DNA of 64,000 bases from Yuukianura sp. NJ FZ-2021. Lineage: Eukaryota. The notes beneath the pieces are model-generated. The model ran no database searches, was not told the DNA's origin, and worked only from the letters and a program-made list of their open reading frames with translations. The stretch is taken from contig CM102290.1 in the NCBI GenBank assembly GCA_046563655.1, forward strand, positions 12,896,001-12,960,000, written 5' to 3'. Shown here in pieces: positions 2,566-62,400 of the stretch; the first letter of the stretch is position 1; each line of letters opens with the position of its first letter. Both the position numbers and the translations under genes were made by a program.

Positions 2566-7694
<5,129 letters not shown>

Positions 7695-9515
7695 TTTCGT
7701 GTACTTGACCCTACCGTGTGCTGGGTAGAGACTTCTGCTATGATCAGAGGTGTAACAAAGTAGTTTTATAGATTTCTAATATGATTGAAGAAGCTTTCAC
7801 TGATTTTGATAAACTGCTCCATACCTGCGCGGAATTAATTGGCATAATCTTATCACATATGAAATAACAATTACTACGCCATCACCAGTACTTCTCTTCA
7901 ACATCATCATCAATCGCCTGCATATTCAAGGCGAGATGAAAAAGTGACATAGATCGTCTATTGTAAATGTTGAACTGGTTTTACAGCAATTGATCTTTCA
8001 GGAACAAAGGAAAACTGACATTTTGAAGGAAAGTGCTGTGAATTCTTGCTACTACGCAGACGTATAGTTTGACGCAAACGTTTCACTAACGTAACTCAAT
8101 TGAGGACTTAAATAAACATGTATTGAGGTTGCTAAAAGTTTTATTCATTGGCTATAATGCGGCGTCACCTGAAATCACGTGTTATTGGTTGAAATTAATG
8201 CAATCAGAGTTGCAGTTTCGAAATACCGCTGTGAGAAGTTGAAGCGCGTTTAAGCTAATGAGGCTCCGCCCCCAAAATCTTGATGATCAAGTTAGTTATC
8301 GAATTGACATCTATACGACAAAGCAAGGGTTGCATGTTAGATGTTCATGTTGCATGGATTTTGCATTTCGAATTTCTACAGTCGATACCCTCATGCTCTT
8401 ATTGCTCGGTTCCAACAAAAGTTTTCGCGGGCAAACCGGACGGATTCAAATCGCACACATATGAAACGTTGTTAACTTATAGCAGCATTTTTTTTGTTTA
8501 CAAGCGTAATCCCGCCAAAAACATAAGCTTTACGGTATCCTGCTATCAGGCGGAGCGGACCTAAAAGTTGCACAGTGAGGGGTTCTACTGTAACTGTAAA
8601 ATACTGTTAGACTAAAAATGCAATTTGCGAATTTATCACTGGAAATAATTTGCAAATGAGGTATTCATCCCACAGGTAGCTTCTGGAACGAACTTTAACT
8701 CGACAGAAGATATTGGGGGAAGATAAAACACGTAATTTACGTAATCTAGTTTTTCCATAAGTTTAGCATCTCAAATTCATATGCTGGAAATGAACTTTGG
8801 GATTGAGATTCTCATTCCCCAAAGTTCATTTTCTTACTGCTGCATCAGCAAAAACAAATAAACTTTTTCCTAGTTTGTTACACATAGTTTATGCATATTT
8901 TAGTTTAGAAAATTAAAAGTGTACACAAAATGTAAATGCTAAAACAAAATTAACTCACGTTGCAAAAACTTGGAAATACAAACTTCCAGTACGAAGCTTC
9001 ATTAGTTGAGTCACTCGTACAGATAAACTTTCACTACTCTGAGTTGTGCATTGCCTTTAAGTTGGAACAGGGCCAAAATTTACTAACAATACTTAAAAGA
9101 TGTCAAAAATCCATCGATGACAGCAGCCTTTATGACTGTTTATACATTCTAAATATGTTTATCAACCATCATAATCCAATTCCAAGTCCACTTTGGTCCA
9201 CAAAGTCACCACCTCCCGTCGTCCACAAAAGATAGACAGATAGTTTGTCTCAAACCTTGACAATACAAGTCCATACAACGACTGCCCGTGTCTTCCAGTT
9301 ATCACTACTACCACCTCGTTTCAGTATTCAGAACACCGTCTTTACAAAATATCTCTCAGGATTCGACTAAAACGCTCATAATTATCCCATTTACTTTACT
9401 AAGTCGTATCCTCACTTGTCAAATAGGAAAGTTTTGAGGCTGATTGAACCAATTGCTGCGTAGAAAGTCAATTTGAGTGACCGATTTTTGTCTGGAAACT
9501 TCCTCTGTGTTATTA

Positions 9516-12224
9516 ATGGGCCTGGAACCTCCTGGATTCAGCATCATCTGCCTCTTGTTGGCTGCACTGGATCCATCGCTTGGCGCTGCCACGCAAGACA
9601 GGTCAATTCCCCTCGGGGTCATTGTCACCGGACTCCGAGTCGAGGTAAATGTCCAAATCTTATTCAGTAACGAAGCTACTTTATGAATTGACCTTGTCCG
9701 TGTGTCTGTCTCTCTGCCGGCTACAATTATATCACTTAATCTATGGCAAGGTTGCTCTGGCGCCCATATATACAAATGCGGTAACAGGTTGTCACAACTC
9801 TATTTGTTTAAAATTGCGAAAAACAAATTTTTTGTACCAATCCCGTTTGCTTAACATAGCGCGTGGTCAACTTTTTCAGACGAAAAATCAAAATAAACAT
9901 TTATTAAAAAACAGGAGTTATGGCATAACCTGTTAAGAAAAAACAAACAAAATTTTGATTTGAACAACCTTGATCCATGGCACCCCATTACTCCAGGTGA
10001 CCTTATAGGGTCACCATTACCTGTGAAAATGAAAAATAAGAATGAATTTTCGCTTGATGTTTTATGGATCTCCTATTTTTTGAACAGGATGCGAACGTCT
10101 CTTATGAAAACGGAACATCAGTAATTGTTGCAAATTCTCCAATTCGGATTCGGCTCTTCGGTGAAGGATTTACCAATGATACACTTGTCCGGTTCACGTC
10201 AGAGAGTCAAGGCAGATCTGCCGTTTGCCATGACAACTCCATGTCCAACTTGACGTCAAGTCCCGCCTATCCGGTGAGAGTCGAGAATCACATTTAAAAT
10301 TGGGATGTTGAAAAAATTAATTAACAATTAGTTAATTCTTGGTTTTCAAATAAGGTGTCCGATGTTGGTCCGCTGTCAGACTCCGCCTGGCTAGAAATCA
10401 GCTTCCCCTCGCCCACAGTCGGCACTGAATATTTTTTCATTTGCACACTCCAACAAGCCAGCAGTACTTCCGCGTCTACTTGGATTCATCAAGGGAATGA
10501 CGACTGGCTACGAATCAAGGTCAAGGACAGACTCCTCCCCTTCTGGCTCCAATGTCTCTTCATTTCTATTCTGTTGCTGCTGTCAGGCCTCTTTGCAGGG
10601 CTGACCCTTGGTCTCCTAGCACTGGATCGCACTGACCTCAAGATACTGGCCAATACTGGTTCAGACAAAGAAAGAAAGTATGCCAAGACAATCATTCCTC
10701 TTCGGACGCGTGGGAATTATCTACTGTGTAGCCTTGTTCTTGGAAATGTCCTTGTCAACTCTACCCTAACAATTCTTCTGGATGATCTCACTACCGGGGT
10801 TATCGCCATCATTGCATCGACAACAGGGATTGTCATCGTAGGGGAAATCATACCACAGGCGATTTGTTCCAGAAATGGATTGGCCATTGGAGCTAAGACG
10901 GTGTGGCTAACAAAGTTTCTCATGCTCATTACGTTTCCGCTGTCCTACACGATCAGTTTCATCCTGGACAAAATCTTAGGAGAAGAAATTGGAATCGTTT
11001 ACAATCGAGAAAAACTCAAAGAACTTATTACGGTGAATCTTCAAATTTCAAATTTTATTAAAAAAAATTAATTGTTTCAGTTTTCAGTAATTTTCAGATT
11101 AATTTTAGTTCGTTGAAGGTTTTTAGAAGGAGGGGGCGGAGCCATCGCTGAGTTGGCGGGAAATGGCGTTGATCCACTACTTTAAACTATTATTGACTTA
11201 TTGCAGGTAACAATTGAGCACAATGATTTGGAGACAGATGAGGTCAACATCATTTCAGGGGCATTGACCTTAAAAAAGAAAACAGTTGAGGATGTCATGA
11301 CCCCTCTGGCCGAAGTTTTCATGCTTCCAGCCCAAACGTTGTTGGATGCGGAGCTCCTCGCTGAAATTCGAAAACAAGGTTACTCAACGCAAAGAAAATA
11401 TTTTTTTTTGTTTCTGAATTTTTTTTCCAAAAACAAGGTTTTGCACGTATTCCGATCTACGATGGAGAAAGGAGTCGAATATTGTCCGTTTTGAACACGA
11501 AGGACCTCGTGTGTGTAACTGGTGACAAAGTGCCACTACATACTTTGATTGAGCCGAACAATACTTGCTTCTTTGTCTTTTCCGATGCCACACTGGATGT
11601 AATGTTCAACGCATTTAAAACAGGTTTGACAAAAAAATTCATCAATCTTGATTAGGGGTGTAAATAAGTCACTTCTTTCTACAAATCCGGATTTCTGATT
11701 TTAATTTAAAAAATTCGGATTTTAATCCGGATTTCAGAATACAGACGAATTCCCATAAGAGTTTCTTTTAGTTCTCCTAAATTGTAAACAACGTTGGTTT
11801 TCAGCTTCAATTACTAAAAAAAAGTTGAAAATGGAATAGGAATGCTCTTTTTGATTAACTGAATTTAAGGAAGCACTTTAAACTCAAATTTTCGGTTGTT
11901 GAGGTCAATTTTCGAATTCTCCATACCCTAAAATGGGAGAAAAAATCCGTCACATCCGGATTCGATATTTTCGGAATAGGGATAGGGAAGAATCCGGATC
12001 CATCAAAAATCCGGATTTATATCCGGAACAAAAATCCGGATTTACACGCCTAATCTTGATGAAATTTGGCATTGACTTGTTTAATTTCAACAGGAAATCG
12101 GGGTCACATGGCGTTTGTCCAGAAATTGAATACTGGACAAGACGACAGAGACCCATATTGTGAAATCATTGGAATTGTAACACTGGAGGACATCCTGATT
12201 GATTGGTGGCCAGAACGATTTTGA
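9516..12224 (+). CDS. CNNM: CNNM-family paralog C, ending after the CBS pair (no CNBH domain)
   Basis: Exons approx. 9516-9644, 10088-10273, 10355-11032, 11207-11378, 11438-11623, 12093-12224. Contains a signal-like N-terminus, DUF21 motifs (SGLFAGLTLGLLALD, GEIIPQAICSRNGL) and CBS motifs (GFARIP, GHMAFV..DPYCE..TLEDIL), then IDWWPERF*. Confidence 0.88.
9747..9972. mobile_element. hAT-type MITE, CAAGGTT family subtype A
   Basis: Ends CAAGGTT...AACCTTG. 8-bp flanks atctatgg / atccatgg (7/8). Confidence 0.85.
11653..12052. mobile_element. hAT-type MITE with subterminal TCCGGA repeats, in last intron of CNNM-C
   Basis: TIR taggggtgtaaat / atttacacgccta. Perfect 8-bp TSD ATCTTGAT at 11645-11652 and 12053-12060. 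Confidence 0.9.
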
Positions 12225-20715: not shown

Positions 20716-22067
20716 TAGCACTTCTACATAAGAGGGTAGCTAAGGTCTCGCTTAACTATTGTGCCTCATTGTGGTGGCTGCCACGGAGGAGGATAGATCA
20801 ATAACAGCTCTGTGGAAGAGGACTTTTACTGTGAATTGTAACCTAATGTCACTAATGTCATCTTCAAGTTGTTCCTACTTCTTACAGTGAAACTAGTGAT
20901 AAACTAGTGATTTAGAATTAGTAATATTAAGCGTTGTAAAGCCAATTTTTATCGTTGGCTATTTATCGTTAACAAAAGTATTTTCAATTTTGGAATTTTC
21001 ATTTTGGAATTTTCATCCCCCCGAAATTCTGTGCCAGAACGCGTCGTTTTTTTAAACCGAACCATGCATGGGTCTACTTGATTTTCTAAAAAGTGTAACC
21101 TGCCAAAGTTCAAGTTCACAGTTGATTGCCTCTTTGTAGCAGTGTGCTGTGCCTCTACGCTGAAAACCGATTTCGTTTTAGTGCATTACTGCACTGATTA
21201 CACATTTTTTGGAACTGGAGTTAAAAATTGAACGCTAAAGAACAGCCGACGCCGACAAAGGTGAGTTTGTTTTATTTTTTGGCACAAATGACATTTACAT
21301 GGTTCAATGGCCTTGTAATATTGTCAAACACAATTTGGTCAAAAAGAGAACAGGTCAAAAAGTGAGAAGATCAAACAAAACCTTTACCCTCCCCAAACAT
21401 GTTGACATTTTCACTTTTTGATCAAATTATTTCGACCATTTCACCTCCTGTGCAAGTAATACACAAAAAATTCAAAAATGTTCACCCTCCCTTCATTTGG
21501 TTCAATCTTAGGTCATAAATTTTTGCTAAATTTTGTTTCATTTTTCCACTTTAGTTTTTCAATGTAAACGGCGCATCTGTCCAAGTGTAAATTAGCACCT
21601 AACTCTGCATCTAAAACATTCAAGTTCAAGAACGTAAAGACACTTGATATGGCCTTTAAATGTTTATTTTTAAGAAGAACGGCACTAGAACTTGATATTT
21701 CTAAAATCTATTTGCACTGTTTTAAAACTCAAGGTCTACGCAACACATTTCCTTTGATGTTCTCCGGCGTCATTATTTCACATCCTCACAAAAACGCGTT
21801 TTTGCCGCGATTTGTAAATGGAAAAAACACTTTGCCTTTTTCGTACACACCGGAAAGAGTTTAAAGCTGATGATTTGGTACCTCCTTCTGCCAAAGTGAT
21901 TCTCCGCAAGAATGATGCTGTCATGTCGTGTGTCAAGTTTCTTCTTAAACATATAGACATGATGCTGACTAATTTTCAGTTGTTGTCTTTCTGTTTTAGG
22001 AAATACATGAGGATTGGCAGTGATCCGGACGTCTTCAAGGAATTATGTTCTTGTGACTGTCAAAATC

Positions 22068-25000
22068 ATGTCATCAAGTTCCGATATGACGGAGACAGGA
22101 AGTTGTTCCAGGTCCAGCAGCAGTTGCAGTGTTGAGAACGTCACCACGACGCCTGACACTGACGACACACTTTCCATTTTTAGTTTCATTTCCCTTAGTC
22201 ACCATCATCATGAGCACTCTTGTCACAATTCCTCAGGAAATCTGAGTAGAAGTCCGAGTGATTTGAGCCTCAGGAATGGTCACTCCCCTGACATTCCCCA
22301 CTGCTGTGGTTGTAACCATAGTAACAGTAGCCATTGTGTCGGATTCCACAGTATGTCACCGTGTAATACTTTGGATCTCAAGCGATGTGGGGATGAGTCG
22401 CTGTTCTGGAAGTGCACCCTACTGCAGAAGTTAATTGGGGAGGAAGAGAGCCGGAAATGTAACTGTCAATTCCAGCATCCCTCTCAACCACATTCCCTCT
22501 GCAAAACCAATTACATTCAGTTGCTGTCAAAAGGCAGGGATGGTCTGCTACTCAAAAGTCTCGAAAAAGGAGGTAAAACATTCAGTTTTAGTCAAAAATT
22601 TTGGTCATTTGATCGCTCCGATTTTAGTTTTCGAAATTTCCTGTCCTCATTCAGTCGAAAATGTTGATAGAAAAGCATCTCAAAATCGGGCGCCAAATTA
22701 AACCACCCCAAATTTTTTGGTAGTATCAAAAAACGGATTTTCGAAAACTGTATAGTTTTTTCAAATTTTGTTTTTTTTTGTTTAGAAAAATTGGAAAAAA
22801 CTGGAGATTTTGCAGAGAAAAACATTTTTTACAAAACAGTGAACACTTTTAAGTAATTTTTTAGCACGTTTCTTCTAAGTTCCCGTCAAACGCAAAATTT
22901 AATGTTCTACAAAAACTAAAAAAAAATGCACGGAGAAGCGGTAACCCTATGATAATTTCTTTTTTGCCAGAATGCTAAACAGTTAAATGAAGCGCATCTT
23001 GGATTCTCGGGGGTTGTTTTTGTTTCACATCGTGCCGAGATTAAATCATTGACTTCTCTTTCTTTGGCATTGCATTAAGAAATCGACAAAACATCTCCAC
23101 AATTTTGAATTGTGTCTGTCAATGTCAAAATCAGGAAGAGATAATGTAGACATTTGAAGTTCTCATTGTGCAAAAAAGGAACTTTTTGTCCAAAGTGGTA
23201 TTGAAGGTATGAATGCGGCGATGGTGGGAAGAGGGTTGAAAAGAAACAAGAAGATAAGTATATAGTATGGTGAGAAATCCACTTAAGGCGTGTAGGAAGT
23301 GTGCAGTAACTTATCCTGATAAGTTTCAGTTTTAATTGACTCTAGAATCAGTAACTTCACCCTCTCTTTTTCTCTGTGGAACTGCTAACAAGTAGGAATT
23401 AGTGCTCCAAAGCGTTCATTGGCATTTATAGGGGATGATGGACAGTTCCCAGTTCTCACGTGATATGGGAACTCAATGTGAAGGAAAAGCAAAATCAAGG
23501 AAAAACAAATTAAACACGAGCGTCAAAAGTGGATGAATTTTTGATAAATATTTCACGAAAAACACAAATTTTTTTAAGCAAAAACGGTCCAAGTAGCTTG
23601 TCGCTTCGATCCAGACCGGAATTTTATTTCTCCTCATGCTAAATTTTTAAAACTTTTACTTTTTCCCATTTAACTTTTAACTTTTCACATTTGACTTTTA
23701 ACTTTTTGCATCTAGATTTTAACTTTTTGTAGCTAAATTTTTTTTACATTTAACTTTTTGCATCTAACTTTGAACTTTTACATTTCACTTTTAACTTTTT
23801 ACACGTAAGTTTTAACTTTTACATTTAACTTTTAACTTTTTACACGTAAGTTTTAACTTTTATATTTAACTTTTAACTTTTAACATATAAGTTTTAACTC
23901 TTCACATTTAACTGTTAACTTTTAACTGGACAAGGATGAGAGGATCTAGACAGGTTTTAATTAGCCAATGTGTCATGTTGTAAGATTCGGCCTTGAAACT
24001 GTGCTAAATAATTAATGAAGATGACAAGACAAAAGCATGCGCAGAAACCCATATGGCTTCGTGAACACTTAAGAAAGAGGCAGTTTATTTGGCGGAAGGT
24101 GTTGTTTATTTAATTAGTTTCGCCTTTGAACTTTCAGCATTACATTTCCTCTGAGAATAAAGTTTAGCATCTAATTCATGATGCTCTTGACGTGCCTTTT
24201 CCTTTTTCAATAAAGTTATAAACAGAAGATGCGTTGTTTGCATTGTAAGTCATCTTTCATCACTCGCGTAATTGACAAGCTCCGCCCCTTTATTAATTAT
24301 TTCCACTTAACGTTGGTCCATTGTTCTCCTGTGATCAGCTTAGTCATGTTCTTATTAATCAAATTGCAGATTGACGCTCTCTGGGAGGGAGGAAACTTTC
24401 AAAATTTCAAAATTGTTTCTTTCATTTCCTTTTGTCGTTTTGACTTTTGAACATGCTGAGATGAAACTTGAACTTAAAATTGGTGAGGTTAATATGAAAT
24501 TCGTGATGAGTAAATTGTCGAATGTTGTTGCAGTACAGTAATCCACATTCTCGTTGCCAGTACCACGCCTGAATTTTTTTAAAGCAGCATCAAGTTTGCA
24601 ATTTTTTTTTTGAAAATTTGAGTTTGCTGTTTACCTTGGATTGACCAACACCATGATCTTCTGGGAGGTTAAAAGTTTACACCTAACGAAGTTTTTTTGG
24701 GACAATTTTTATTACTTTGCCGGCACGGCAGAAATGGCGAGGAAAAAAATCGTGATTCAGAATATCATTTGGAAAGTACGGCTTTAATGAAATTGATTTG
24801 CTCATTGGCTAACATTGTATAAACTTAAAAATTTGCATACAATCAGTAATCAACTGGGCATCCGACTTTCACTTTAGTATTTCACAAAATTTCATGTTAG
24901 AGTTCATGGCGAATGTGGAATATCTTGTGTTCTTACAGGAAAATCCAAATCAGTTTACTAAAGTTTAAATAGAAAATTTTGCCCTAAAATTTGACTTCTG

Positions 25001-27570
25001 TAGAATCCAGAAATGAAATGAGTTTTTCAGAAATTTGAAGCGGTACGTTCAAACTCATTCTAAAATGTTGGGTTTAGTCTCATGCTGGTCGCTCATTGGT
25101 TAGGAGTTGAATTTTTGAAGTGGTCTGAATCCAACATGGCGAAAAGCGTGTCACTATACTCGGTTATTTAAAAAAAAAAGTTTAGGCAGGAGGAACTGAA
25201 TTTTTATGTGAACAACAAAAGTTGTTTTTAAGAAGAAGACCAATATTGCATGATCCACGCTTTGACCTTGGCCGAGGAGGTGCTGTAAATAATTGATCAC
25301 ATGGAAAAAGACATCTAATTTTTCCGATTCAACATTGGATACAAAGTTGACCTGGGTTTAGTATATGCTTCTGGATATGGAGGATCTTAAAGGTCACGAG
25401 AAATTGTTACAGTGCGGCTTATTTTAGAGATTTTGTTCAAAAATTGTTGTGAGAGCCCAACGACGCCGCTTAAAAGAAATAAAAATTTGAATGCCAACAC
25501 AACCTCTAATTTTATGTTGCAATACTCACCGTTCGGCTGTGATTAAGGCCTTGTTATGTAAAAAAGTAAAACAAAAGTTGGTGGTTTCAGGTCATAAAAC
25601 ATTATTTACAAACAAGTGGCAGAAGTAAATGCAAAGTATGAAAGGTGGCTTGAGAACGACATGTAAGATTAATTGTCTTAGGAGGAGGTTGACAACAAAG
25701 TTACTTCAAGGTGTTAATTGTGCACAGGAATAAAGGGGATGAGGTCATGTTAAATTAAAAACAAATTTTCAAGTCGAAAATGAAAAACAACGAAATGTTA
25801 TCGAAGGCACAAACATTTTCAGTTCCACTGTTGCCACCTTGCTCAATTCGCTCTTATCGTTTTCGCGCTAATGGCCAACTACAGGATACTTAATAAGCGA
25901 AATCATGACTTTTACAATTCCTCGGAATCAATTATCTCTCAGGTCATAAAGTTTGTACCTTAATGTACACCAACGTTGCTACAGCGCCAAGTTATACAAA
26001 TTCGCTACAAGGTTATGCCATAACTCACTTTTTTCAAAGTATCACGAAAAAAAAATGTATGCCAATTTTGTACGAATCTCAATTACTTTACATGGCGCGA
26101 TGCGCGAAGTCCACTTTGCAGACAAAAAATCAAAACAATTTTTTTAAACAGGAGTTATGGTATAACTTGTTTAGAAAAAACAAAATTTCAAATTAAGCAA
26201 CCTTGATGTACACGTACAAAGTACAGCTGGACATGGGTTACTCCCAAAGTCAAAGTTGTCACCGTGACCTGAAGCCACACACTGTACCTAAGCTTCCTGA
26301 ATTACTCATTCCGCCTTGCATAGTCACAACGATTAGTCACGCGCCTAGCCTGTTTAATTGTAAATTGTTAATTTAAAACTTTTGTTCCTTTGCAGTTCTA
26401 TTTCCGTTGATACATTGGTCCAGCAAAATGAACGAGAACTATCCGCTACCACTTCATCTCACTCCCATTCCCAATTTACACTTCAATCAAGGTACTTCAA
26501 TTGGAACTACAACTTCCATCTAATTAATTTAGGCTTAGATTAACTAAATTTTAACGTATTTCCAGGGATTTACAGAGAGCTGAAACGAGTAATCCCACCC
26601 GAAGCTTGGCTTCAACATGAGGCAGATCCATTTGACGACTTGGGATCATCCAAGGTTCGTAAACAAAAAACAAACTTTTCTGCACCAGGTTGTCCAATAA
26701 CTGGGAGTTTTAAAGTTTGTTTGAAAATAGCAAATTTGCCTTTCTATGGTATTTTTTTTTGCATGTAATTTAAATGGGATTGGTGCAGAATTGGTTCGGA
26801 AATTTGTTGGAAGTAACATTTTTTGGAAACCCTGAGTTATTGGACAACCTGTTGTAGGAATTACAATTCGGTTGTCAAGGAACCTTGAGATCATCCATGA
26901 GCCCACTATGTCCTGTTGGTTCATCACGGAAACCCACGACTTGGTTAGTCATTGGTTACAAGAGCCTGGAAAAGACGCTGGACAGCTCCCTGGAAGCGAC
27001 ATGGAAGGAATGGACGGGCGCTCGTCACGTGTACCTGCACCTACGAAGCGATTTTGAAATTCGCAGAATCTCGTTCTTTCATCGCGCATATCCAGCCGAC
27101 AACCTTGACCTGTAAAAAATCGATTTTTGCCCAACTTTTTGCCAAAATTTGATTGGTCAATTTGCTTTCCTAGGTTCATGTATGTCGTAGTCATGGAGAT
27201 TGGGAACGTCGATGACCGTAACCGTATCTGGCTGCTGGACTTTGTTCAGCGCATGCGTGCAGAAAGAATGAAGGGATTTGTCACAGTATATTCGGAAATT
27301 GATGAAGAAGTATCTTGCATTGAGAATGAATACCTCAAGTACAAGAATGCCACGAGTCCCACCGGAATCCACCCACCGCTGAGAACACATTTCCACCAAA
27401 CACCGCCTCCTCCCAAAACAGCGCCTGCGTCACTTGGACATGACACGAATCCACTAACGCTATCACAGCATCTACTAGAAAGTCAGTCGGCAGAAATTAA
27501 CGGCAACATCAAGTTTATGGAAAACCTGCTTGCAGAAATTAGAAAAGCACAGATCGGGGAGTACTTCTGA
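22068..27570 (+). CDS. Uncharacterised protein (Ser/His/Cys-rich N-terminus; globular C-terminal region with WKEWTGAR)
   Basis: Phase-compatible exons 22068-22572, 26396-26491, 26566-26654, 26858-27111 and 27174-27570. The 26655-26857 intron is inferred and lies within a MITE. Confidence 0.7.
23660..23926. repeat. AT-rich degenerate tandem repeat (TTTAACTTTT-based) in a long intron
   Basis: Many copies of tttaacttt(t), with higher-order units such as tacacgtaagttttaactttt. Confidence 0.85.
25971..26205. mobile_element. hAT-type MITE, CAAGGTT family subtype A
   Basis: caacgttgctacagcgcc ... aaccttg. Perfect 8-bp TSD ATGTACAC. Internal IR ttatgccataactc / gagttatggtataa. Confidence 0.88.
26651..26887. 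mobile_element. hAT-type MITE, CAAGGTT family subtype B, inserted in coding sequence
   Basis: caaggttc...gaaccttg. Internal IR caggttgtccaataact / agttattggacaacctg. TSD ggatcatc / agatcatc (7/8). Confidence 0.88.
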
Positions 27571-27704: not shown

Positions 27705-27930
27705 CAAGGTTCGTTAAACAAAAAAAAAACTTTTTCTACACCAGGTTGTCCAGTAACTAGAAGTTTCAGAATTTGTTTGAAGAAAAAATTCTGGCTTTCT
27801 ATGGTAATTTTTCGCATGTAATGTAAATGGGATTCATGCAGAAAGTTTGAAGTATAAGATTTTTGTAAACCCCGAGGTACTGAACAACCTCTTGTAGACT
27901 GGCTGTAGATTGGTTGCTATAGCAACCTTG
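27705..27930. mobile_element. CAAGGTT-family MITE, degenerate or chimeric
   Basis: Subtype-B-like left end and interior. Right end ttgctatagcaaccttg resembles subtype A. No TSD match. Confidence 0.65.
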
Positions 27931-28474
27931 GACATTACCCTTATCTTTGGCTTTAATTAATTTCCAGTCGCGTCTATTACGTTGAAATTTCAACTTTCAA
28001 CTTCGTTGTACCGTTGAATTAATTTGCAATTCCCGCACAATTTCAAATCTACATAACAAATTAATCTAAAATAAAAATCATTAACAATTAGAATTGTAGC
28101 GCCGTGTACGTTCATTTTGACAAAAAATTAATCACTCAAAGCGCGTGAATAATTTCAGTGGGAATTTTCTTTGGCCTATAAATAAGCTAACTGGTTAGTT
28201 ATTTCTTTAACAATCATTACAAATACTTGACTCTGTACCATCCAAACCACTAAACACACATACAAGTCTAACGATTAGACAATGCTAAAACACCGGTTGA
28301 CAAACAAGTTGCCATGGCCACCACTTTGGTAACTGAGAAACATTGTACATGCATGACTATAAAACTCTAAAATATGAGCTTCAAACCTAAACTACAAAAT
28401 TAAGGCCAATGATTTCTGAGCCGCGATGTACATTTTACATGGAAAGAGTCGTGAAGACTTGAGAGAAGCCGAAT

Positions 28475-35705
<7,231 letters not shown>

Positions 35706-58146: not shown

Positions 58147-58437
58147 CAAGGTTGCTATAGCGCCCATTTAAACAAATTCGCTAACAGGTTATGCCATAAC
58201 TCCAATTTTTGTAAAAACATGAAAAAACAACTTTTGTACCAATTTTGTTGATTTTCACAATAATATTTTGAAATTTTTTCAATTTTCACGTTGCTGAATC
58301 ATAGGTTTGATTTCGAATTGCTAACGCAACGGAGCCGGGTCAGATGTGCGGTTCAAAAAATGTGAAAATTTGAAAAATGGAGTTATGGTATAACCTGTTA
58401 AGAAAAAACAAACAGAAATTCGATTTAAACAACCTTG
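58147..58437. mobile_element. hAT-type MITE, CAAGGTT family subtype A
   Basis: CAAGGTTG...CAACCTTG. Perfect 8-bp TSD CTCTAAAT. Internal IR taacaggttatgccataactcca / tggagttatggtataacctgtta. Confidence 0.92.
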
Positions 58438-59143: not shown

Positions 59144-59375
59144 CAAGGTTCCTTGACAACCGAATTGGAATTCCTGCAACAGGTTGTCCAATAACTCAGC
59201 ATTTTCAAAAATATTGCTCCAAATAACTTTTGGCACCAATTTAGCACCTATTCCAGTTGGATAACAAACAATTACCGTAGAACGGAAATTTTGTTATTTT
59301 CAAGGAACTTTAAAAACTTCGAGATATTAGACAACCTGATGTAGAAACAACATTTTTGTTTATTTCCGAACCTTG
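59144..59375. mobile_element. hAT-type MITE, CAAGGTT family subtype B
   Basis: caaggttccttgacaaccgaattg ... gaaccttg. Same internal IR as the 26651 copy, in opposite orientation. Confidence 0.82.
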
Positions 59376-59453: not shown

Positions 59454-62400
59454 ATGCTGACTACAAATTCCATGGAACCGGTTCCAGCCCAAACAAGAAG
59501 AAAGCGATCCAGAACCAATTTCCTGTCTATTCCAGTTACTCGAACACAGTTTATGAAACGGAACTATGAAGAAAGTTATGAGGCTGAAACGACCTTGACA
59601 TCTCCAGAAGACATTTCATTCTACAAATCTATACCCGTTGTACATGGAGTTCCCGACGGATGTCGCTCTCCGGAATCGACTTGTTCGGATTCAACCTCAT
59701 CGTGCTCAGCATGTATATCACGGGATGCAGTAAGTGTTGGAACAATGAATTAAATGAACTTAAGAGTGACCTTGACCCTATGTTTTGTTCGCAGAAGGAA
59801 AGGTCGCGTGATTCGCAAGATATGCAGAACTGTCTTGAATACGATACGCAGGGAGAGCACAATCCTTGGTACATCCGCAAGTTTGCCAATTTTATATTTT
59901 TCTGGAGAAAGTGGTACATTGGGCCACAGTATCACATGGTCAGCCTAAAAGACGTAAGAAACTTTTTAGTACTTTTGTGAAGGTTTTACGTTTCATTGTG
60001 AAATTGAACAAAAACTTTTTTTCGTGGTTAGATGATGGATGACGAGCGTGTTAATCATGCAATTTTGGAATCTGCGAAAAACGAGATGCGTGAGAACCCC
60101 AGATCTGCAACATTGGATGTTTTAGTGGAGAAACATCGACTTCGAGCTGAGAAAATGATCATCGATATGCGTGCAAAACAACCAAAACATCCGTACTTTT
60201 CGCTATATGCTAGGTAAACAAGTTGAAATTTTTAAAAATTTTGAAAATGTTGCGAAAATTTTCAAATGAAGAAATAAGCGACTTTATTTCATTTTATTTG
60301 AAGATTTTTAACAGTAACAAATTGTTGCTATTGCTTTCACTTTGTGTCATTTTTGTAACTGAGATGTACTTTCGTCTAATTATCGCCGTTTACTGTCGAA
60401 TTACGACTCGAAATTTTTTATGGGTCAAAGTTCAACCAGCTTTTAATTTTTTTTGAACTTCTCTGGTTTAGATTTGCTTCATGGATTATCGGCAAAACTC
60501 TTCAACGAATTTATCCATCAATCTTCGTAAGCAAATGTCAATTAGAGGGAATACGCAGAGCCCGAGCAACAGGCCACCCAATCCTGTACTTGCCAATTCA
60601 CCGAAGCCATGTTGATTATGTATTGGTTTCCTGGGTACTCGTAGCATCTGATATCCGGTCTCCAGTTGTAGCTGCAGGCGACAACCTCAACATTCCAGTC
60701 TTCCAGTAAACTTTTAAAAAATTGCTTAAAAAAACTTAATGTTTAGCAGTATCAAGGTTCCTTGACAACCGAATTGTATTTCCTACAACAGGTTGTCCAA
60801 TAATTCGGGGTTTCCAACAAATTTGTTTCAAATAATTCTCCCCCTCCCCCCTCAACTCTAATTGCTTTACATAAAAATAATTCTCACAAGGAAAAAATTT
60901 TTCAAATTTTTAACAAAATGAAAAACATCGAGTTATTGGACAACCTGGTGTAAAAAAACAAACATTTTTTTTCCAAACCTTGACCAATATACTGGAATTC
61001 TTCTATTTCTAGCATGATGATGAGAAGTGTTGGTGGATTCTTCATCAAGCGGAGACTAGAAAAAGGCGGGATTCGGGATTCCCTCTACCGGGCAATTCTG
61101 CACTCATACATGGAACGATCTATTCTGAACGACAATGACTTGGAATTTTTCATCGAAGGCGGCCGGACACGTACTGGAAAACCATGCATCCCTAAAGGTT
61201 TTCCCCACAGCCATGCAATGACTCATGCAATCCTGCAAATTTCGCAAAATTTTAACAAATTTTACGAGTTTAGTTCAAATTCCGATTATTTATGCTTTTT
61301 TTTCTCAAAAATTTGATTAGGTGGTCTCCTCAGTATTGCCATGGACACTCTGCTGTCCAGGAAAGTCGAAGACATACTGATTGTCCCAGTCAATTTCAGC
61401 TACGACAAACTGCTAGAAGGAAGTTACGTTAGAGAGCAACTGGGGAAAACCAAGCCAAAAGAAAGCTTCTTATCGGCAGCTCTCGGACTTTGGAACTCAA
61501 TTCAAACCAAATTTGGAAATGCTAGGATTGATTTCGGACAGCCATTTTCAGTCAAGGTGAGAAATTCTGAAGCTACAAGTTGTGCAATGAGAGGTTCTAC
61601 TGTATTTGATATATTTTTTTTCAAAAACTGAAAAAATGAAAAATCTTTTAACATCGTGCAGGAATTCATTCACTCTTACAAGCAATGGAAGTCTCCGTCG
61701 CCGTTGATGCAGCTTTACAGTTGTGAAAGCTGTGTTTCTGACACTGATCAGAACAACAATGAAGAACAAAACGTTGGCAGCTCTGACGTTGCAATTGAGG
61801 ATAGACGAGACTTTATAAGCAATTTAGCACAGCACGTCATCTACGGTTGCTAATTTTAAATTTCCGTTTTTCAAAGAATGCATTTTGGATTCCATTTTTT
61901 CACACACGTTTTACGAATTGCTTAGATGGCGTTAAAAATTTGTCTATCATGTCCACAAACATTGTCGCCTTTCTTCTGCTGAACAAATTTCGTGAAGGCG
62001 TCAGTATGGACGTTCTAGTGGAGGAGCTGGAAGTTCTGCGTTTGGAGTTAAAAGGAAGGAACCACGACATCAGTGTGGACAGCGACATGAAAGAAGTCGT
62101 TAACCATGCGGTAAGGCAACTACGAGGCAATTTTGATGTGTATTTTTCGAATTTGAAGCTAAGCTTTTAAAATTTTAAATCAATCTGTGTTCAAGGTTCA
62201 TTGACAACCGAATTGTATTTCCTACATCAGGTTGTCCAATAACTCGAGGGTTTCAAAAGTCTAGTTTCAAACAATTTTTTCCCAATTTTGTTTAGGAATG
62301 GAGGTGAAATTTAAGGGTTTTCGCCTTGCAAAATTTTTTCACAAAATTGAAAAACCCGAATTATTGGACAACCTGTTGTAGAAAAAAAACCTTTTCCTTG

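Follow-up and report, generated by a model that had tools for sequence, protein, structure and literature searches.

The locus analyzed here raises the question of how a gene can stay readable after a transposable element has inserted into one of its coding exons. It is located in a window of 64,000 nucleotides from Yuukianura sp. NJ FZ-2021 (contig CM102290.1, positions 12,896,001 to 12,960,000), to which all coordinates refer unless another locus is named. Here, a MITE of a CAAGGTT-ended family, in the following referred to as F1, interrupts a DUF7153 gene within one of its coding exons.

Judged from the sequence, this is an old exonic MITE in a gene that is probably functional, and the element would most likely be removed from the message as a newly gained intron. 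The MITE is located in a length-variable linker of the conserved DUF7153 coding exon. According to the proposed mechanism, the spliceosome would join the donor in the left TIR (26655) to an internal AG (26857), thereby excising most of the element and leaving an insert of 14 residues in the DUF7153 protein. Splicing would probably be leaky, with competing acceptors giving rise to messages with premature stops.

The interrupted DUF7153 gene

Position, length and TSDs of the MITE within the open reading frame were as originally described (Table 1), and the open frame was regained by removal of the element together with one TSD. Both ends of the element are formed by CAAGGTTC. It represents a dispersed repeat (42 matches from 40 scored out of 512 candidates), and exact matches to the ends of its family were found 89 and 82 times, compared to none for the reversed controls. 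Short, non-coding, flanked by TSDs, bordered by TIRs and present in many copies, it has the features of a MITE. The predicted fold reached -87.7 kcal/mol (z -7.5), and none of 200 shuffled sequences folded as well.

The interrupted frame was assigned to DUF7153 by a Pfam profile search in which PF23672 matched both exons downstream of the MITE. Elsewhere in the genome the profile matched one other locus only, which was divergent. These matches, together with orthologs that align free of gaps across the empty site, support the earlier proposal that the MITE is located in a coding exon. The upstream exons A and B were placed by means of P0072, the named ortholog of Folsomia candida; homology support for exon A was weak and did not include a Pfam match. 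All remaining splice sites of the gene were intact. The protein would comprise 426 residues with an empty site and 440 residues after the proposed splice, and retention of the MITE would lead to a stop 5' of the last intron. A protein with near 100% identity to the downstream exon was not found among 18 candidates or 63 representative matches.

Table 1. Positions of the DUF7153 gene, its MITE and further exonic-looking MITE copies (window coordinates unless a locus is named)
Feature	Position	Strand	Remarks
Exon A, coding	22000..22572	+	open frame; tblastn match to Folsomia ortholog P0072 (E 0.003); in-frame ATGs at 22068 and 22086; C-terminal end LLKSLEKG; GT donor at 22573
Exon B, coding (LFPLIHWSS...FNQG)	26396..26491	+	matches P0072 and L035-L037
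Exon C, part 5' of predicted intron	26566..26654	+	holds left TSD and 4 nt of the TIR; GIYRELKRVIPP conserved in orthologs
Left TSD	26643..26650	+	7/8 match to right TSD (26888-26895)
MITE, CAAGGTT-ended F1 family	26651..26887	+	237 bp; long hairpin fold
Predicted intron	26655..26857	+	203 nt; TIR donor 7.5 bits; internal acceptor 1.3 bits
Subterminal inverted repeat	arms 26677-26710 and 26827-26860	.	34 nt, 82%; right arm spans predicted acceptor
TAA met on retention of the MITE	26766..26768	+	stop after residue 261
Competing AG	26787..26788	+	5.3 bits; in frame with TIR donor, then TAG at 26855
Alternative in-frame pairs (predicted)	26749^26879; 26715^26857; 26659^26879	+	+38; +34; +8 residues
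Exon C, part 3' of predicted intron	26858..27111	+	30 nt of the element, right TSD, DUF7153 positions 70-127
Intron	27112..27173	+	62 nt; same position as an L035 intron
Last coding exon	27174..27570	+	DUF7153 positions 132-169; stop codon 27568-27570
F1 MITE, reverse orientation	L213:1501-1696 (G000:C4, about 14.967 Mb)		arginine-kinase-like exon, Pfam-confirmed; perfect TSD
F1 MITE, reverse orientation	L271:4599-4800 (G000:C6, about 199.1 kb)		7.9% from consensus; Pfam-confirmed exon
Sister-family MITEs (three), one orientation	L129:6076-6387, 7134-7462, 8226-8496		perfect 9-bp TSDs; in one long coding region
F1 MITE, reverse copy	L278:350-647 (G000:C1, about 1.503 Mb)	-	between open frames of 83 and 116 codons

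Additionally, several minor features were noted in and around the gene. The 62-nt intron 27112-27173 was present in the orthologous locus L035 and absent from L036 and L037, which marks it as an older gain or loss within the DUF7153 gene. A probable short non-coding first exon with a strong donor (AAG/GTGAGT) was located 5' of exon A at 21222-21260. The long intron of the gene (3.8 kb) contained a T-rich tandem-like repeat with TTTAAC-containing units (23670-23925) as well as a further CAAGGTT-ended element (25971-26205). CAAGGTT-ended elements with TSDs were also present in the window at 9747-9972, 58147-58437, 59144-59375 and 60753-60982. Just 3' of the DUF7153 stop, a second related element (27705-27930) carried an F1 left end, another right end and no clear TSD. 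A convergent multi-exon gene on the minus strand (28400-29950) presumably resembles a cytosolic 5'-nucleotidase.

Age of the insertion and state of the gene

The original prediction held that relatives should lack an intron at the insertion site. The site was continuous and intron-free in all three orthologous genomic loci (L035, L036 and L037), so that the absence of the intron position in the orthologs indicates a gain. The linker at this site comprised 28 residues both in the DUF7153 gene and in L035, and the alignment had no gap. Among the 9 of 12 sequences that were parsed the linker ranged from 12 to 49 residues in length, into which an addition of 14 residues fits. The three continuous orthologs rule out that the MITE landed in a pre-existing intron, and at a linker of such variable length extra residues should be tolerated.

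The MITE differed by 7.0-7.1% from the consensus of its subfamily. Within the set of 105 copies its nearest sibling was 90.6% identical, and no F1 copy was less than 5% from the consensus. Likewise, none of its BLAST siblings exceeded 86% among the 40 scored genome-wide. With this divergence, no young sibling and 426 open codons, the insertion is old and, as had been supposed, tolerated.

Neutral decay of the coding sequence was simulated with rates measured on the MITE family. At d=0.045, the chance that 426 codons stay free of stops and frameshifts was <1e-5; it rose to 0.003 when indels were given one third of the measured rate. Taken singly, the two halves had a neutral chance of 0.001-0.05 of keeping an intact frame. 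With stops alone the chance was no lower than 0.02-0.08. The result thus depends largely on the indel rate, a value measured on AT-rich elements that might overstate the rate in exons. A test of invariant columns (P 0.10-0.40 downstream and 0.3-0.5 upstream) had no power and did not separate selection from drift.

These results bear on the possibility that the insertion broke the gene, leaving a not yet decayed pseudogene or null allele, for instance if the insertion were younger than its divergence suggests. The weak acceptor and the higher-scoring splice pairs leading to stops (see below) would fit such a history. The same applies to the indel rate, if it is indeed too high for exons, and to the differences at 3 of 39 downstream invariant columns, which are compatible with drift. 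However, the 105 copies include no young one and no closer sibling than the one mentioned above, the TSD has already diverged and every other splice site is intact. Furthermore, a neutrally decaying gene would have kept its frame intact with a joint chance of at most 0.003, and the gene differed at 2 of 43 invariant columns, much like the orthologs L035 (2/41) and L036 (2/43). A broken gene is considered unlikely.

Retention of the MITE with a split product, in which an N-terminal piece would end within the MITE and a C-terminal DUF7153 piece would start from ATG 26897, is regarded as very improbable. This ATG is located just past the right TSD, upstream of every residue matched by Pfam. However, both parts are found in one frame in the orthologs. 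Moreover, a stop 5' of an intron is expected to trigger decay of the message, and restart of translation after a frame of 261 codons is inefficient.

Selection has thus probably acted on the DUF7153 gene ever since the MITE inserted. If so, the RNA must be repaired, and on the present sequence data we consider repair of the message, by one route or another, to be quite likely.

Predicted removal of the MITE from the transcript

Splice sites were scored with a self-trained model, for which 250 predicted introns out of 924 kb served as training set and which gave normal signals. For seeding, 8 donors and 8 acceptors had been picked by visual inspection; one of these acceptors matched another site of the window. 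The donor AAG/GTTCGT at 26655 and the acceptor TGTAG/G ending at 26857 were found at the positions originally given, and on the sequence level the predicted intron of 203 nt, adding 14 residues and no stop, could be reproduced. The TIR had further been proposed to provide a usable donor, which its score supports. This donor was the best GT in the region 26567-26860. Among random GTs it fell within the top 1.5%, and compared to the donors of predicted introns it ranked at the 54th percentile. An identical donor 10-mer was present in a predicted intron outside of MITEs.

The acceptor ranked at the 0.4th percentile of predicted introns only, and 22% of random AGs matched its score. All 25 predicted introns of 150-260 nt had acceptors of at least 5.5 bits, in a set selected for strong sites. 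With 8.8 bits, 26655^26857 was the best productive (open-frame) pair and the fifth overall. The four pairs that outrank it, headed by 26655^26788 with 12.8 bits, all lead to stops or frameshifts. Regarding the junction 26654^26858 the earlier claim therefore stands in part: the pair is the best productive one and has a good donor, but the acceptor is weak and three acceptors score higher, each of which again results in stops or frameshifts. Overall, there is about an even chance that this junction is the productive one, and splicing of the MITE is probably leaky.

The in-frame pair +5/-30 is a property of the F1 consensus and was the best in-frame pair in 44 of 111 non-coding copies (40%). Being inherited from the consensus, its presence at 26651-26887 is not in itself evidence of splicing. 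There was no sign of an adaptation of acceptor 26857, as 61% of 83 copies had a better margin. Conservation in the splice regions of the MITE was no higher than in other copies, and the branch-point candidate GTAAC was not enriched in the genome (5 observed, 5.3 expected).

As other in-frame GT-AG pairs exist in the MITE as well, the element might be removed in frame at other sites, either by different spliceosomal pairs or by hairpin-triggered SOS or hybrid splicing with mixed products. In the predicted fold the acceptor 26857 was paired to 93% and the donor 26655 to 87%, so the strong hairpin would hide this acceptor, and the AG at 26879 was 61% unpaired. Sister families are predicted to use an AG located 8 nt from the end, and the length range of the linker would accommodate such products. 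SOS splicing excises exonic DNA transposons via repeat pairing and rescues genes where the insertion site is poorly conserved (PMC12779559). However, the remaining productive GT-AG pairs score lower (at most 7.2 bits). Removal at other sites is in our view a serious alternative, though the less likely one.

Substrates of SOS splicing typically give heterogeneous junctions other than GU-AG, in a process that requires AKAP17A. Like such substrates, MITE 26651-26887 is exonic, its ends pair as a hairpin and it affects a poorly conserved part of the protein. It differs from them by a true TIR of only 8 nt accompanied by a longer subterminal stem. SOS splicing itself is described as independent of the spliceosome, imprecise and rarely GU-AG (PMC12779559).

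Spliceosomal removal at 26655/26857, which we favor, would rather resemble those introners of Aureococcus in which both splice sites are part of the element. These are described as likewise non-autonomous elements with TIR and TSD supplying both sites, with an in-frame scar composed of element bases and the 8-bp TSD (PMC9860276). However, the scar reported there measures 12 nt (4 residues) compared to the 42 nt (14 residues) predicted for MITE 26651-26887. Intron gain from transposons has also been divided into a precise type, with an AGGT target, and a near-precise type with sites near the element ends (PMC3443670). The MITE would fit the near-precise type.

Intron gain from DNA transposons is already established, and MITE 26651-26887 alone would add another plausible case, one in which the acceptor is weak. 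As an old case from an animal, it would show an imperfect transposon intron after millions of generations. A literature search that covered few subscription papers gave no result on the F1 MITE or on intron gain by MITEs in springtails.

The CAAGGTT-ended family in the genome

The MITE had initially been labelled as a hAT element. Elements of the hAT superfamily are known for a uniform TSD of 8 bp. F1 did not share this feature, as TSDs of 8 bp were found in 90 of 105 copies and TSDs of 9 bp in the other 15, several of the latter being perfect. The target sites had a palindromic G...C bias; a target bias of the type G-T...A-C also fits some hAT elements. A short TIR, mixed 8/9-bp TSDs and the G...C bias are features that F1 shares with the P superfamily (BuT5-like). 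A partner transposase with F1 ends was found at none of 14 loci (9 hAT, 2 P and 3 MULE). In detail, there was no CAAGG-ended, TSD-flanked element within 10 kb of the 9 hAT-domain loci, and the two P-domain loci had no F1-type ends; the family is old and its partner may have decayed. Since TSD length varies between 8 and 9 bp and the 14 loci yielded no partner transposase, hAT is at most a tentative label.

BuT5, a P-element MITE of the Drosophila repleta group, is likewise described with a very short TIR, subterminal repeats and TSDs of 8 and 9 bp (PMC3698922). The likeness of F1 to BuT5 is one of features, and no matching P element was found in the genome. The genome also contains a single-copy P-transposase-like gene (L098, G000:C9:579509-581089), for which no element ends were detected within 10 kb and which is possibly domesticated.

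In total, 219 CAAGGTT-ended elements were delimited in 1.98 Mb of genomic DNA, including 120 F1 copies. Coding-like flanks were present in 7 of 189 main-family elements and in 3 of the 120 F1 copies, compared to 11.5% of 600 random sites. The depletion from coding-frame sites had p about 1e-4 for the 189 elements and 3e-4 for the 120 F1 copies. The counts cover exonic sites and leave out insertions into existing introns, and the classifier of coding flanks was crude: L218 was ranked low and for L219 the wrong strand was probably picked.

The AG/GT within the TIR had been thought to turn the whole family into a potential intron generator. This was overstated, since only 1 of the 120 copies fits the GT route, F1 is depleted from coding sequence, and the other two Pfam-confirmed exonic copies fit a GC-AG route. 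True introners are enriched in genes and occur in many copies with consistent splice sites, whereas the few exonic F1 copies have two different predicted routes. F1 is not a true introner family.

Both of these other copies (L213 and L271) are inserted in reverse orientation. The MITE of L271 splits an otherwise intact FAD/cholesterol-oxidase-like gene and breaks its domain between profile positions 106 and 109. The TSDs of both copies end with CAGG, from which a GC donor at the edge of the element and an acceptor in the second TSD are predicted. Scarless GC-AG introns are thus predicted for both from their sequence. CAGG-type TSDs were found in 5 of 400 non-coding element-orientations. Within the types outlined in PMC3443670 these reverse copies would fit the precise one. 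They differ from it in that the target ends with CAG/G, the first C of the TIR completing a GC donor, and that there is no duplicated AGGT. Furthermore, the three sister-family copies of L129 share a +5/-8 pair predicted to add 7 residues each; their flanks had no Pfam match.

An in-frame option of at least 8 bits was present in 6 of 8 exonic-looking copies and in 89 of 400 non-coding ones, a post hoc comparison. At 11 bits or more the proportions were 5/6 coding-like versus 26/400 non-coding copies (p 1e-5), again post hoc: GC donors were added and thresholds chosen after the cases had been seen, and MITE 26651-26887 and L219 were left out as pre-selected. For the GC-AG route a test was set beforehand, in which 36 of 41 pattern matches were examined (4 had already been seen and 1 was omitted). 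None of the 10 newly delimited AGG-preceded elements had coding flanks above the threshold, and only one of these 10 was F1 in reverse orientation. Inspection by hand of 13 of the 26 undelimited matches led, post hoc, to one further candidate (L278). It has CAG/G on both sides and 5 extra bases between TIR and TSD, with no Pfam match.

Tentatively, CAAGGTT-ended MITEs could be seen as facultative intron makers with multiple routes, of which selection kept only those exonic copies that solve the frame. The donor supplied by one and the same 7-nt end would be a GT located 4 nt within the element or, where the target ends in AG/G, a GC at the edge of the element. The frame would depend on orientation and TSD length, giving +14 residues for MITE 26651-26887 (8-bp TSD), +7 for the sister families (9-bp TSD) and scarless GC-AG introns for reversed F1. 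The three routes predicted from one element end would make spliceosomal and SOS removal comparable side by side.

A survey of 3,325 genomes included 835 from animals and land plants, and in these it found introners in no more than two groups (PMC9860276); a later survey adds a sea urchin and plants (PMC12130899). If several routes are indeed used, the new introns of the family would form a dated series, in a lineage from which introners are only rarely reported.

Finally, a further F1 copy (L282, G000:C1, about 7.533 Mb) was located at an apparent native acceptor, which was duplicated. We take the exon downstream of this MITE to resemble the C-terminus of a serine protease.
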